Origin: Escherichia phage vB_EcoS_AVIO78A
Sequence record: MZ726797.1
DNA length: 57,811 nt
Reading direction: 5' to 3' (one strand)
In this document: in pieces, positions 6,902-9,359 of the stretch
Numbering within the stretch: position 1 is the first letter of the stretch
How the letters are laid out: every line of letters starts with the position of its first letter
Translations under genes and position numbers: made by a program
Notes under the pieces: generated by a model
What the model was told of the DNA's origin: nothing
The model's database searches: none
What the model saw: only the letters and a program-made list of their open reading frames with translations

Positions 6902-6931
6902 GGCGGGAATATTCCCGCCCGTTTTCTTTTT
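6902..6931 (+). terminator. intrinsic terminator after terminase gene
   Basis: GGCGGGAATATTCCCGCC hairpin plus T-rich tract. Confidence 0.65.
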
Positions 6932-6968
6932 AATTCTTGACAAATTACATTATAAATGTTTGTAAATT
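6922..6968 (+). promoter_or_regulatory. candidate promoter of accessory operon (UP-like, -35 TTGACA, -10 uncertain)
   Basis: resembles the conserved promoter family but spacer to a good -10 is atypical. Confidence 0.35.
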
Positions 6969-7055
6969 ATCTGTTAGATTAATGTAACACGTCTATACTC
7001 CTGTAGGTAACCAATCGGTTACAGTTAATTAACATTCTCTCACAGGAGTTTCAAC

Positions 7056-7160
7056 ATGTCTGACATGACTTTAGTTCCCACTGGCGGTTTCGGCGGTGAA
7101 GCTGGCGCGGCTGCACTTGGCGGTGGTATCGGTGGTCTTATCGGTTCCTGGTCGCGGTAA
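7056..7160 (+). CDS. short Gly-rich ORF (34 aa) overlapping start of next gene; possible leader or frameshift partner
   Basis: ATG with AGGAG RBS at correct spacing; translation MSDMTLVPTGGFGGEAGAAALGGGIGGLIGSWSR. Confidence 0.35.
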   Translation: MSDMTLVPTGGFGGEAGAAALGGGIGGLIGSWSR

Positions 7161-7713
7161 CTTTGGTGGTCCTGTAGAAGTTCAAGCCTCTGTAGATACC
7201 AACGCTATTCTGCAAGCTATCAATAACGGTACTCTTCAGACCATTCAGGGTCAGAATGGTACTAACCTGACTGTTGAACGCTCAGCAGCTTCTACCTATA
7301 ACGGTCTGACCCAACAGAACACACAAAACCTGCTGGCAAACGTTCAAGGTTTTGCAGGTCTGAACACGCAGATTCAACAGGGTACTAACACTGTGACCAA
7401 TGCGATCTGTGCATCTGAAACTGCGGCACTGACTCGTTCTTTCCAGGCACAGTTAGCGGCTGAGAAGTGTTGCTGCGAAACCAACCTGAATATCGAACGT
7501 CAGGCAGAAGCAACTCGTGCACTGATCCGTGACCAGTTCGCACAGTCTCAGGCTGTTCTGATTTGTGACCTGAAATCTCAGATTCAAACGCGTGACTTCC
7601 AGTTGTCTCAATTGTCACAAACGTCTCAGTTGGCGTGCAAAATTAACCAGGTCGATCAGCTTATTAACTTCAAGCTGCCTACTCCGCAAACTCCACCGAC
7701 TGGCTGCTGCTAA
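7096..7713 (+). CDS. Gln/Asn/Thr-rich Cys-containing protein with signal-peptide-like N-terminus
   Basis: ORF track (GTG start, no internal Met); N-terminus KLARLHLAVVSVVLSV; C-terminal GCC; start ambiguous. Confidence 0.45.
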   Translation: MKLARLHLAVVSVVLSVPGRGNFGGPVEVQASVDTNAILQAINNGTLQTIQGQNGTNLTVERSAASTYNGLTQQNTQNLLANVQGFAGLNTQIQQGTNTVTNAICASETAALTRSFQAQLAAEKCCCETNLNIERQAEATRALIRDQFAQSQAVLICDLKSQIQTRDFQLSQLSQTSQLACKINQVDQLINFKLPTPQTPPTGCC

Positions 7714-7763
7714 TTGGTCAACTAAGCGCCTCTGTACGGGGCGCTTTAACAGGAGATAAGAGT

Positions 7764-8123
7764 ATGCATTACAAACCGTATTACGTTATCAAAAAAGACG
7801 ATGATGACGATGAAGAGGAAGATGTAGAAATTCATCACCATCATCATTATCACCACGGGCATCACCCGGACACGACGGGAGTATTTCATCATGATAGCTA
7901 TGCTGGCGAACATGGTTCAGTTATGGCCCATGTTAAAGCACGTATGGATAACCCTCCTTCGACTTGGGCGTCGTACCACGATAAGCCCGGCGGGATGATG
8001 TCCATTGTTGAAATGGAATATCGCGAACTGATGGAAGAAAAAGCCGAAGGTTCGACGTCTGGTATTAAAAAAGAGCTAACGGATCTGGCTGCAGCCTGTA
8101 TCAACGCGCTTAAAAAGATGTAA
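7764..8123 (+). CDS. Asp/Glu- and His-rich protein (possible metal-binding)
   Basis: ATG with AGGAGA RBS; DDDDDEEEDVEIHHHHHYHHGHH tract. Confidence 0.55.
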   Translation: MHYKPYYVIKKDDDDDEEEDVEIHHHHHYHHGHHPDTTGVFHHDSYAGEHGSVMAHVKARMDNPPSTWASYHDKPGGMMSIVEMEYRELMEEKAEGSTSGIKKELTDLAAACINALKKM

Positions 8124-8139
8124 CTAACAGGAAACCGAC

Positions 8140-8637
8140 ATGCAGAATATTAACGCAGGTATGGGTGTCACCCAGTTTAACGGTATGAAACCGCGAAGCA
8201 CTATTAACATTGGTGGTGTGGAGTGGTCATTACGTCGGGATGCCACTGACTCAACAACAATGTTTCCTCACCCGAAGGTAAGCTGGCTTAACGCTGGTTG
8301 TGAACCGATGGGTGATGGTCGTTTTCATTACTGTTGGATTTTGGGTGTGATTCCCCCGACACCGGGGACAATCGAACGACCTGTTAATGTGATGTATGTT
8401 GGTTTCCATCAATTTAAAATTAATATCGCACCTAATTCAATTAGTCAGGCTGATTTAGACAGGATGCATGTTTATGTCAGCGATACTTCTCATTTTGCTG
8501 GTGAATTTGTCAGTAAGTTTTTAGGTACAGAACCTGTGGAAACTCGTGAAAATATCAGCCCGTGGCCCCCGATGAATGATCCTCGTGAGCAACCAAAAGT
8601 AGCCAAAAATAAGGTAAACGAAGATGACGAAGAATGA
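8140..8637 (+). CDS. hypothetical protein
   Basis: ORF track with RBS; acidic C-terminus. Confidence 0.5.
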   Translation: MQNINAGMGVTQFNGMKPRSTINIGGVEWSLRRDATDSTTMFPHPKVSWLNAGCEPMGDGRFHYCWILGVIPPTPGTIERPVNVMYVGFHQFKINIAPNSISQADLDRMHVYVSDTSHFAGEFVSKFLGTEPVETRENISPWPPMNDPREQPKVAKNKVNEDDEE

Positions 8638-8878
8638 AGGGGTAGACAAAGTAGTCGAAAGTCTGGGGTTACGAGCACACGTAATCGTAGACGAAGGTCA
8701 CAGTCAAGAAGCGATCATGAAGTCGGCATTTAACGATTTTAAAGCGTTGGGTTCTATGAGCGGGATCATGGCAGTGATGACTACCGGGAAATTAAGTCAG
8801 CAACAGTTAGATCTGGCACAACGTATCGCTGTGAAAGTAATTGCCGTTTTAGGTCTTAAAGAGTCAGAAAAAGCGTAA
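8624..8878 (+). CDS. hypothetical protein
   Basis: ORF track; overlaps previous gene end. Confidence 0.5.
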   Translation: MTKNEGVDKVVESLGLRAHVIVDEGHSQEAIMKSAFNDFKALGSMSGIMAVMTTGKLSQQQLDLAQRIAVKVIAVLGLKESEKA

Positions 8879-8892
8879 AAAAGGTGATTATT

Positions 8893-9057
8893 ATGTGTTG
8901 TAGAACATCGTGTTGTCTGGGAAGTCCTGCTACGCAATTTGGTCTTCTTCAATCACAGATTGCACATACTCAGGTCGTTTTCAGAGGGTTTACCAGTCCG
9001 TTCATAGTACCATTACAGTTTTCCGCGTTCACGTTTAGACCTTTTGTATTTTACTGA
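8893..9057 (+). CDS. candidate small Cys-rich peptide (54 aa)
   Basis: ATG 7 nt after AAGGTGA; MCCRTSCCLG N-terminus; ends before terminator; may instead be untranslated. Confidence 0.25.
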   Translation: MCCRTSCCLGSPATQFGLLQSQIAHTQVVFRGFTSPFIVPLQFSAFTFRPFVFY

Positions 9058-9359
9058 TTGACTTTGCCCCGGACAGTTCCGGGGCTTTTTTCAACGTCTG
9101 AAAGAACAGCGAGGCTAACAGAACCTAAACCGAATATGACGGCGTATGTTAGCTGATGTTGAAGTTTCACAAAACCGTAATAATCGCTTTGCAATTCCAC
9201 GATGTCAAAAGCAATTGAAAAACTGGTTACCAGCAACATGATTGAAAGAACACGAATCAGAGCAACTGCTAATCCTATCACCCCTTGTTCTTTTTTCTCA
9301 GTTGTAATAACGACAACAATCATTAACAGAAGTGAAAAAGCAATGTACATGTATTCCAT
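9051..9359 (-). CDS. small membrane protein (2-3 predicted TM segments)
   Basis: ORF track; hydrophobic stretches. Confidence 0.45.
   Translation of the reverse strand: MEYMYIAFSLLLMIVVVITTEKKEQGVIGLAVALIRVLSIMLLVTSFSIAFDIVELQSDYYGFVKLQHQLTYAVIFGLGSVSLAVLSDVEKSPGTVRGKVNQ
9066..9091 (+). terminator. intrinsic terminator (identical to the one at 26543)
   Basis: GCCCCGGACAGTTCCGGGGC plus T6. Confidence 0.7.

Follow-up and report, generated by a model that had tools for sequence, protein, structure and literature searches.

A mobile and frequently decaying accessory gene cassette between the terminase and portal genes of an Escherichia siphophage, disrupted in its first gene

What kind of element separates the terminase (TerL) and portal genes of Escherichia phage vB_EcoS_AVIO78A, and what might it do? 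We addressed this question in sequence record MZ726797.1, whose whole stretch of 57,811 nucleotides (nt) is here called the window. The gap between the two genes measures 4.28 kb, in line with the ~4.3 kb given by a first-pass annotation made from the sequence alone, and relatives share the same arrangement. Its first part, the region 6922-9091, holds five plus-strand genes, which we name A to E. Judged by the identity of this region to its relatives, the window phage is a virulent 9NA/Sasha-like siphophage: identity is 96–97% to the E. coli phages PJ16, Bas82 (KarinMuster) and Sashavirus 536P12/BDX09P1, and 87% to Salmonella phage Sasha, and the match to phage 9NA is limited to the right-hand 40% of the region. 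We show that the region is one copy of a horizontally mobile, dispensable and often decaying accessory cassette, A-B-C-D(-E), and probably a transcription unit of its own. We further show that gene A has been inactivated in this phage by a recent 38-bp deletion at a microhomology.

The evidence for mobility comes from the distribution of the cassette. Searches with tblastn and hidden Markov models recovered A-B-C-D, in the same order and with similar gene sizes, from 37 loci in several phage groups. Carriers include 9NA-like phages, Hanrivervirus and other Drexlerviridae, Seuratvirus and Nonagvirus (both Queuovirinae), Segz_1-like phages, Hafnia phage yong3 and Yersinia phage P400. The four genes also occur in Edwardsiella phage eiAU (Eiauvirus) and in two highly diverged metagenomic contigs, L089 and the podophage-like L088. 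Outside the 9NA-like group, the cassette nearly always lies directly 3′ of distal or lateral tail-fibre genes, and in L088 it sits between a tail-fibre gene and genes for internal virion proteins. The upstream terminator, the promoter-like site with its 5′ hairpin, and the downstream terminator travel together across these phage groups, which supports the earlier proposal of an autonomous, moron-like unit. Among 5,426 complete E. coli genomes, the cassette had no match. This absence marks it as a cassette of lytic phages, not of prophages, that acts in lytic infection, and on the same grounds we rejected a role in prophages or lysogenic conversion. Host modification in the sense of lysogenic conversion, as first suggested, is thus unlikely for an element that is found in virulent phages.

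The cassette is also repeatedly lost. In phage 9NA, A and B are gone along with the 5′ part of C, and three Seuratviruses of the BASEL collection carry three different lesions: a split A in SeppeHuegi, a deletion from A to C in WildeMaa, and a truncated A with loss of B–F in VogelGryff. Together with remnants in T5-like phages, these partial losses indicate that the cassette is dispensable. The remnants, found in Epseptimaviruses, are decayed copies of A directly 3′ of the lateral tail-fibre gene (SuperGirl, L006 4959-5238; vaffelhjerte, L087 3794-4408), and the SuperGirl fragments are annotated as small 'tail fiber protein' open reading frames (ORFs). Their position beside the fibre gene suggests that a past transfer carried this gene along with part of the cassette.

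Gene A is intact in 34 of the 37 loci scanned; the exceptions are the window, SeppeHuegi and one low-quality contig. Intact A comprises 232 amino acids (aa) in Sasha (gp07) and 233 aa in PJ16 (PJ16_015), and Bas82_0002 likewise starts at the ATG equivalent to 7056. Over 32 residues from its start, the 5′ fragment of A in the window is identical to Sasha gp07 and PJ16_015. The 38-bp deletion falls between two TGGT repeats, within a glycine-codon repeat of the gene. Because of it, the frame from 7056 ends after 34 codons and the remainder of A lies in the +1 frame. From IQGQNG to its end, window A is identical in amino acids to PJ16 A, so the lesion appears to be recent, and an assembly error is the less likely explanation. 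The length of the glycine-codon repeat varies among relatives, an example being a 6-aa in-frame deletion in 536P12 (P0026).

The first-pass annotation had read ORF 7096-7713, which begins at a GTG, as a Gln/Asn/Thr-rich protein with a signal-peptide-like N-terminus, and had called the proteins of the operon secreted-looking. This ORF does contain the 3′ part of A, with CCCETN encoded at 7468-7485, but its N-terminus is not native. The true start is the ATG at 7056, as in 34 other loci, and the native start sequence in Sasha, PJ16 and Bas82 is MSDMTLVPTGGFGGEAGAAALGGGIGGLIGSWFGNGWGGGGGWGGRG... The apparent signal peptide, MKLARLHLAVVSVVLSV, is a frameshift artefact: it is the +1-frame translation of GGN glycine codons (GGT GGT read as GTG GT.), and is hydrophobic by chance. 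The native N-terminus, MSDMTLVPTGGFGGE, is acidic and lacks the basic n-region of a signal peptide. Signal-like starts occur in just 2 of 115 representatives of the A family, and no signal peptide was found in B–E. Across window positions 7096-7160, the +1-frame glycine-codon reading is itself hydrophobic (LHLAVVSVVLSV), and the GTG at 7096, if used as a start, would put a hydrophobic stand-in before the coiled-coil part of A. This GTG lacks a good ribosome-binding site ahead of it, so the arrangement is probably a coincidence. On the reading frames present, the window phage would normally be able to make a 34-aa N-terminal A peptide and B–E only. With A reduced to this peptide, the module is here probably non-functional or only partly functional. 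For annotation, 7056-7713 should be recorded as a disrupted, frameshifted gene, and ORF 7096-7713 should not be recorded as a secreted protein.

The probable transcription unit runs from an upstream terminator through a promoter-like site, a 5′ hairpin, A and a presumed attenuator hairpin to B–E and a final terminator (Table 1). The two terminators that bound it had been proposed before, and both hairpins are present. Equivalents of the first precede the cassette in KarlJaspers, SeppeHuegi, L020 and L026. The promoter-like site aligns with better sigma-70 matches in relatives, namely TTGTCA-N17-TAGAAT in L020 and L021 and TTGGCA-N17-TATTCT in eiAU. A consensus promoter scan of the window did not call the site at 6971-6999, so we treat the window promoter as putative.

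The hairpin just past the -10 site is conserved as a structure. In its stem, 92.9% of cells are paired, against 21–47% when the 3′ partners are slid, and none of 500 shuffles reached the observed covariation score. Two stem positions co-vary: of 14 sequences, 2 have GC in place of AU at one position and 5 at the other, which yields the stem variants GTAAC/GTTAC, GTAGC/GCTAC and GTGGC/GCCAC. The hairpin, with 5–6 bp, also occurs in L002, L004, L005, L012, L020-L022, L026 and L091 (5555-5572), and the combination of -10 site and covarying hairpin upstream of A is kept in 9NA-like, Seurat, Nonag, Hanriver and eiAU phages. It represents either a 5′-terminal stem-loop of the mRNA or a palindromic operator. 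Between A and B lies a second hairpin, AGCGCC/GGCGCT followed by a T-run, that had gone unmentioned earlier. It is present in 14 of 15 cassette versions and is annotated as a terminator in Sasha. We infer that it serves as an attenuator or partial terminator, making A much more abundant than B–E.

Rfam returned only sub-threshold matches in the window, both on the minus strand: STnc480 at 9027-9096 (34.7 bits against a gathering threshold of 72) and mir-598 at 7797-7866 (33.1 against 69). The former lies over the end terminator and the latter over the His-codon repeat of B, and both are probably due to chance. In contig L008 (IMGVR_UViG_3300018478_000021), positions 1-25 at the contig end, just upstream of the cassette promoter region, are an Illumina adapter, CAGACGTGTGCTCTTCCGATCT, and thus an assembly artefact.

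Table 1. Positions in the window of the cassette genes, their transcription signals and the neighbouring genes.
Feature	Position	Strand	Description
TerL	5131-6894		Upstream neighbour of the cassette
Terminator after TerL	6902..6919	+	7-bp stem (6 G-C pairs) and T-run; would shield the cassette from transcription that begins upstream
Promoter-like site	6971..6999	+	-35-like CTGTTA (6971-6976), 17-nt spacer, -10 TATACT (6994-6999); read from sequence
5′ hairpin	7007..7022	+	GTAACC-AATC-GGTTAC, 7 nt past the -10
Gene A, 5′ fragment	7056..7160	+	34 codons and stop; AGGAG ribosome-binding site, MSDMTLVP start, Gly-zipper segment
Deletion junction	7149..7152	+	38 bp lost relative to Sasha at TGGT microhomology (alignment)
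Gene A, 3′ part	7153..7713	+	Q/N/T-rich coiled-coil region; AIC, CCCETN, ICDLK and ACK motifs; NFKLPTPQTPPTGCC tail; out of frame with the start
A-B hairpin	7722..7748 (about)	+	AAGCGCC...GGCGCTT, then TTT; -17 kcal/mol
Gene B	7764..8123	+	119 aa, phrog_9157; acidic His-rich N-terminal region, then conserved ~70-aa helical domain (EMEYRELME ... KELTDLAAAC)
Gene C	8140..8637	+	165 aa; alpha+beta domain with antiparallel sheet, Pro/acid-rich tail
Gene D	8624..8878	+	84 aa, phrog_7239; small helical protein; first 14 nt shared with the end of C; same order in every cassette version
Gene E	8893..9057	+	54 aa, phrog_25697; starts MCCRTSCC; aromatic, hydrophobic C-terminus
Gene F	9051-9359	-	Convergent neighbour; 102 aa, 3 predicted transmembrane segments, phrog_15669
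End terminator	9066..9085	+	Strong; 8-bp stem with 7 G-C pairs, then TTTTTT; annotated terminator in Sasha
Portal	11174-12529		4.28 kb from TerL

Each of the five ORFs corresponds to a real gene, with conserved counterparts in dozens of phages. Relative to Sasha, the ratio of non-synonymous to synonymous substitution rates (dN/dS) is 0.13 for the 3′ part of A, 0.15 for B, 0.04 for C, 0.04 for D and 0.069 for E, and on these values purifying selection acts on all of them. The 54-aa peptide starting MCCRTSCC, previously listed only as possible, is therefore a gene in its own right. The other features first noticed, namely the plus-strand ORFs, the HHHHHYHHGHH tract, CCCE and the terminal GCC, are likewise all present in the sequence.

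Protein A stands at the centre of any functional account. The intact protein of ~232 aa has an invariant MSDMTL-P start, a Gly-zipper-like segment (AGAAALGGGIGGLIGSWFG), a GW/GF-rich stretch, a long, Q/N/T-rich and Cys-rich predicted coiled coil, and a Pro-rich tail. Its motifs include an invariant CCC(E/Q)TN, ICDLK and, in the tail, NFKLPTPxTPP, with GCC as a frequent ending, and it contains 8 Cys. Sasha gp07 matches phrog_9288 over residues 1-231 (E 1.8e-131), and by homology window A is a disrupted member of the PHROG 9288 / 16490 family. A profile search of 1.84 billion representative proteins returned 981 clusters, defined at 50% identity, at E ≤1e-3 and 309 at ≤1e-10, all of them single-domain proteins of about 200–290 aa. 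The distant members (25–34% identity; phrog_16490) belong to Clostridium perfringens phages and to gut phage contigs of Firmicutes type; no cluster names were recorded for them. These Firmicutes-phage members carry a real hydrophobic segment, for example WVWVFFLFFLLAW, followed by GGGGFGFGN. Among 115 full-length representatives of the family, 74 have a hydrophobic 17-mer (Kyte-Doolittle (KD) value ≥1.6) near residue 25, with an acidic N-flank and a C-flank slightly richer in K+R; the mean Cys content is 8 per protein, and 106 have a CCC-like motif. The hydrophobic 17-mer, the flank charges and the Cys pattern suggest that the N-terminal segment anchors A in the membrane and leaves the Cys-rich coiled coil on the cytoplasmic side; the partners B–E also have no export signals. 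An AlphaFold2 (AF2) model of the A monomer has long helices at residues 61-219 with a mean predicted local distance difference test (pLDDT) score of 48.6. Such a low value is expected of an obligate oligomeric coiled coil, and the model was too poor to be used for a fold search. Searching PDB sequences with the A profile gave chance-level matches to HA2 (the influenza fusion-peptide region, E 0.38-3.8) and to Psb31.

The genes beside A in Firmicutes phages (IMG/VR contigs L040-L085; Clostridium phage vB_CpeP_PMQ04, L090, 4187-7842) differ from B–E. Their order is a sigma-70 region-4 mini-regulator, a Q/P-rich protein, a small Met/Gln-rich protein, A, a weakly BclA_C-like or Cys-rich protein, and then DUF7841, rubrerythrin-like or other helical proteins; the set lies between lysis genes and recombinase or replication genes. 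In profile-profile comparisons, B and C were unrelated to the genes that flank Firmicutes A homologues (BclA_C-like, DUF7841 and cluster-18 proteins). Consequently, A is the conserved core of the system.

A Cys/His theme recurs among its enterobacterial partners. In the N-terminal region of B, His accounts for 25% of residues in the window and for 15.9% across 34 homologues; the region varies in sequence but stays rich in His and Asp/Glu in nearly all homologues, and the HHHHHYHHGHH tract is flanked by acidic residues. Over 16 homologues, the best match of B to MazG (PF03819) has E 3.7e-4 (2 members) and the best match to PRA-PH (PF01503) has E 0.0066 (4 members). A profile search of PDB sequences aligned B with 2p06 (AF_0060; E 0.037) across both acidic helices. 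The acidic motifs EMEYRELME and KELTD are present; among homologues, only E85 and E104 are invariant. The AF2 model of C is confident (pLDDT 78.6) and consists of an antiparallel sheet and a helix, with near-invariant His44, Cys54, Cys65, His90 and His110. It has no significant fold neighbour, and a profile search of PDB sequences with C also gave no match. For D, the only matches among PDB sequences were de-novo TIM-barrel repeats, which we rejected as a short-repeat artefact. E is annotated in 9NA (gp15), in Sasha-like phages and in Bas82, and a Seuratvirus has a 45%-identical copy.

Family libraries (Pfam, PHROGs, NCBIfam and PADLOC) searched with A–F returned only PHROG families without known function, and structural PHROG, Pfam, PDB and BFVD comparisons gave no structural-family match for the cassette proteins. 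The earlier remark that none of these resembles a recognisable virion or replication protein thus held throughout the profile, library and structure searches. The BASEL papers are silent on the cassette, searching the literature on CCCETN and on virion proteomics brought nothing of use, and no virion proteome of a cassette-carrying phage was found in the literature. Metal handling, another of the early suggestions, retains some support from the His content of B, the eight Cys and CCC of A, the Cys2His3 set of C and the MCCRTSCC start of E, all of which are features of composition; for a bacteriocin-like factor there is no evidence. Overall, the earlier observation is partly confirmed and its interpretation partly supported.

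Tentatively, we favour a role for A as a membrane-anchored, metal-binding coiled-coil scaffold that, with cytoplasmic partners, acts at the envelope during lytic infection, in competition between phages or in counter-defence. The attenuator after A would keep this protein much more abundant than B–E. Its N-terminal segment, hydrophobic or of Gly-zipper type, would fix A to the inner membrane, with the short acidic N-terminus facing outward and the long Cys-rich coiled coil facing the cytoplasm, where A would oligomerise and bind metal through the invariant CCC and other cysteines. As a scaffold, it would gather three proteins of the cytoplasm: B, which joins a His-rich tail to a minimal MazG-like helical domain and is possibly a metal donor or nucleotide pyrophosphatase; C, apparently a new alpha+beta fold with conserved Cys2His3; and D, a putative small helical adaptor. 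The complex would act at the cell envelope in lytic infection, most likely against other phages or host defence, for example by blocking the entry of superinfecting DNA. Such an exclusion or counter-defence role would account for the joint travel of the cassette with host-range (tail-fibre) modules and for its quick loss under laboratory propagation. We prefer this reading on the strength of the apparent insulation from late transcription, the host-range linkage, the Cys/His theme and the speed with which the cassette decays on laboratory hosts.

Known elements offer partial precedents. Lambdoid morons are genes with their own promoter and terminator inserted between essential genes. The cassette resembles them in its flanking terminators, promoter-like site, TerL-portal insertion, dispensability, horizontal movement and varied genomic positions; it differs in having five genes with an internal attenuator, in its virulent-phage hosts and in its absence from E. 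coli chromosomes, so that it is not a lysogenic-conversion unit. Like T5 llp and T1/phi80 cor, it is non-essential and lies directly after tail-fibre or host-specificity genes, in at least five phage groups. However, each of Llp and Cor is one small lipoprotein of the outer membrane and has a lipobox, whereas A has neither signal peptide nor lipobox, belongs to four co-conserved genes and shows no sequence similarity to them. Histidine-rich tails are known from the metallochaperones HypB, SlyD, UreE and Hpn. B resembles these in its His runs flanked by acidic residues and in conserving composition rather than sequence, but it has no homology to them and no hydrogenase or urease context, and its metal binding is putative.

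Several points weigh against the envelope scaffold. Superinfection-exclusion proteins known from the neighbourhood of receptor-binding genes (Cor, Llp) are single lipoproteins rather than four-gene sets. The enterobacterial A anchor is weakly hydrophobic (KD19 1.14) and 41 of 115 A relatives have no strong hydrophobic segment, so that membrane anchoring is tentative; the proposed topology depends on a weak charge bias in the flanks, and the AF2 model of A has low confidence. Metal binding is suggested by amino acid composition only. The window B protein has no Pfam match, and all MazG and PRA-PH matches of its homologues fall below the gathering threshold. PADLOC matches for A–F are at chance level (GajA for D, E 0.015; HamB for the neighbouring F, E 0.014), and none of A–E has a function established by experiment or homology. 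Further, the recurrent position after tail-fibre genes and the structural-module setting in L088 fit a virion-related role equally well.

That role is the main rival explanation, and we consider it unlikely. The cassette would be a virion accessory module in which A forms a trimeric coiled-coil fibre or whisker, or a scaffold for tail-fibre assembly, with B–D as chaperones or adaptors, dispensable in the laboratory like lambda stf and T4 wac. Its position directly after distal or lateral tail-fibre genes in Drexlerviridae, Seuratvirus, Nonagvirus, Eiauvirus and the T5-like remnants would follow naturally, as would its placement in L088. A is Q/N/T/S-rich with very long predicted helices, its invariant extreme N-terminus could be a docking motif, and abundant A with scarcer B–D, set by the attenuator, would resemble operons of a major subunit and its assembly factors. 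T4 fibritin and the P22 gp26 needle are trimeric coiled-coil phage fibres; A, at about 230 aa, is comparable in its size, long helices, polar Q/N/S/T-rich composition and dispensability, but it has no sequence or profile similarity to them, has a membrane-like N-terminus and 8 Cys, and has Firmicutes relatives outside tail modules. Those relatives possess a true transmembrane segment, and their genes follow lysis genes beside a sigma-70 region-4 regulator, not among tail genes. Moreover, a terminator and a putative promoter of its own would insulate the cassette from late operons, the 9NA-like phages carry it away from their tail genes, 9NA itself does without A and B, and no fibre, chaperone or structural PHROG family shows any similarity. 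A nucleotide-directed system of counter-defence or host takeover is less probable again. Here B would be an active MazG-like pyrophosphohydrolase of nucleoside triphosphates (NTPs), deoxynucleoside triphosphates or alarmones, localised or regulated by A, C and D. Its domain aligns to the two acidic helices of the MazG/HisE all-alpha NTP pyrophosphohydrolases (EMEYRELME, KELTDLAAAC), with the motifs E-x-E-x-x-E and E-x-x-D, as in the PF03819, PF01503 and 2p06 matches; the SeppeHuegi orthologue is annotated 'putative pyrophosphatase', and the fast turnover and frequent decay of the cassette would suit such a role. Yet every match lies far below curated cut-offs, the domain is shorter than in those enzymes, at only about 70 aa, and bears an unusual His- and Asp/Glu-rich N-terminal extension, and only E85 and E104 are invariant among its acidic positions. 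The abundant Cys-rich A, sole component shared with Firmicutes phages, would be left unexplained.

The two other explanations are far less probable. The model of the first-pass annotation, in which a moron operon encodes secreted proteins that modify the host, handle metal or act as a bacteriocin-like factor, can point to a moron-like architecture that is real and to a conserved His/Cys-rich composition, and A, with its Gly-rich N-terminus, bears a superficial likeness to Gly-rich microcins and to the translocation domains of colicins. The loss of its signal peptide to an out-of-frame artefact, with none in B–E and signal-like starts so rare in the A family, makes it very improbable, as do the lack of export, immunity or processing genes, the absence of the cassette from E. 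coli genomes and prophages, and the lack of Pfam, NCBIfam or PADLOC matches. Equally hard to credit is a lysis accessory in which A, like an i-spanin or a fusion protein, would use its membrane segment, coiled coil and cysteines to help disrupt or fuse the envelope. A does recall i-spanin Rz and the class I fusion protein influenza HA2 in its N-terminal hydrophobic or Gly-rich segment followed by a long, Cys-containing coiled coil; it has conserved Cys and a Pro-rich tail, chance-level matches to the HA2 fusion-peptide profile exist, and the Firmicutes A gene lies just after endolysin and holin-like genes. But the HA2 matches, at E ≥0.38, are not significant, A lies outside the lysis cassette and is lost in viable phages, and it has no o-spanin partner, with no lipoprotein gene embedded in or adjacent to it. 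Bas82 has a complete holin/endolysin/Rz/Rz1 cassette elsewhere, and since it possesses its own Rz/Rz1 we rejected a spanin identity for A.

The surroundings of the cassette are themselves variable. Sasha carries an extra leftward gene of 516 aa, gp06 (L002 1411-2961), between TerL and the cassette that the window does not have, which marks the TerL-portal gap as an insertion hotspot. By analogy with Bas82 (L086), the structural genes of the window (TerL, portal, head morphogenesis, capsid and tail) are split into islands by several blocks of small leftward genes; one such block in Bas82 lies between the genes for the tail chaperone and the tape measure and contains a gene annotated as 'superinfection immunity protein'. 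The convergent gene F overlaps the 3′ end of E by 7 nt and extends across the end terminator. It co-occurs with E in 9NA-like phages and Seuratviruses, and its orthologues in PJ16 and Sasha have 91 aa against 102 aa in the window, so the C-terminus of window F is altered.

A moron-like accessory unit is a well-known kind of element, and the genes of this one are already deposited as 'hypothetical' in many genomes. What is new is the conserved four-gene module with its regulatory hairpins, its linkage to tail-fibre genes, the finding that the A family is large and widely spread, and the disrupted A of this phage. The widest interpretation, which we hold with greater doubt than the envelope scaffold itself, is that A-B-C-D represents a widespread and previously unrecognised system. 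In it, A would found a family of ~1,000 clusters of membrane-anchored, metal-binding, Cys-rich coiled-coil proteins in phages of Proteobacteria and Firmicutes, which would work with lineage-specific partners in exclusion or counter-defence at the envelope, be co-inherited with host-range modules and be regulated by the 5′ hairpin and attenuator. Its recurrent tail-fibre linkage and rapid loss on laboratory hosts make the cassette a good candidate for a new host-range-linked system of exclusion or counter-defence. Carriers include phages widely used or proposed for therapy, among them T1-like, Seurat/9g-like, 9NA-like and eiAU-like phages. If the role of the cassette were defined, five dark-matter PHROG families, and a family of ~1,000 clusters reaching into the phages of gut Firmicutes, would gain a function.

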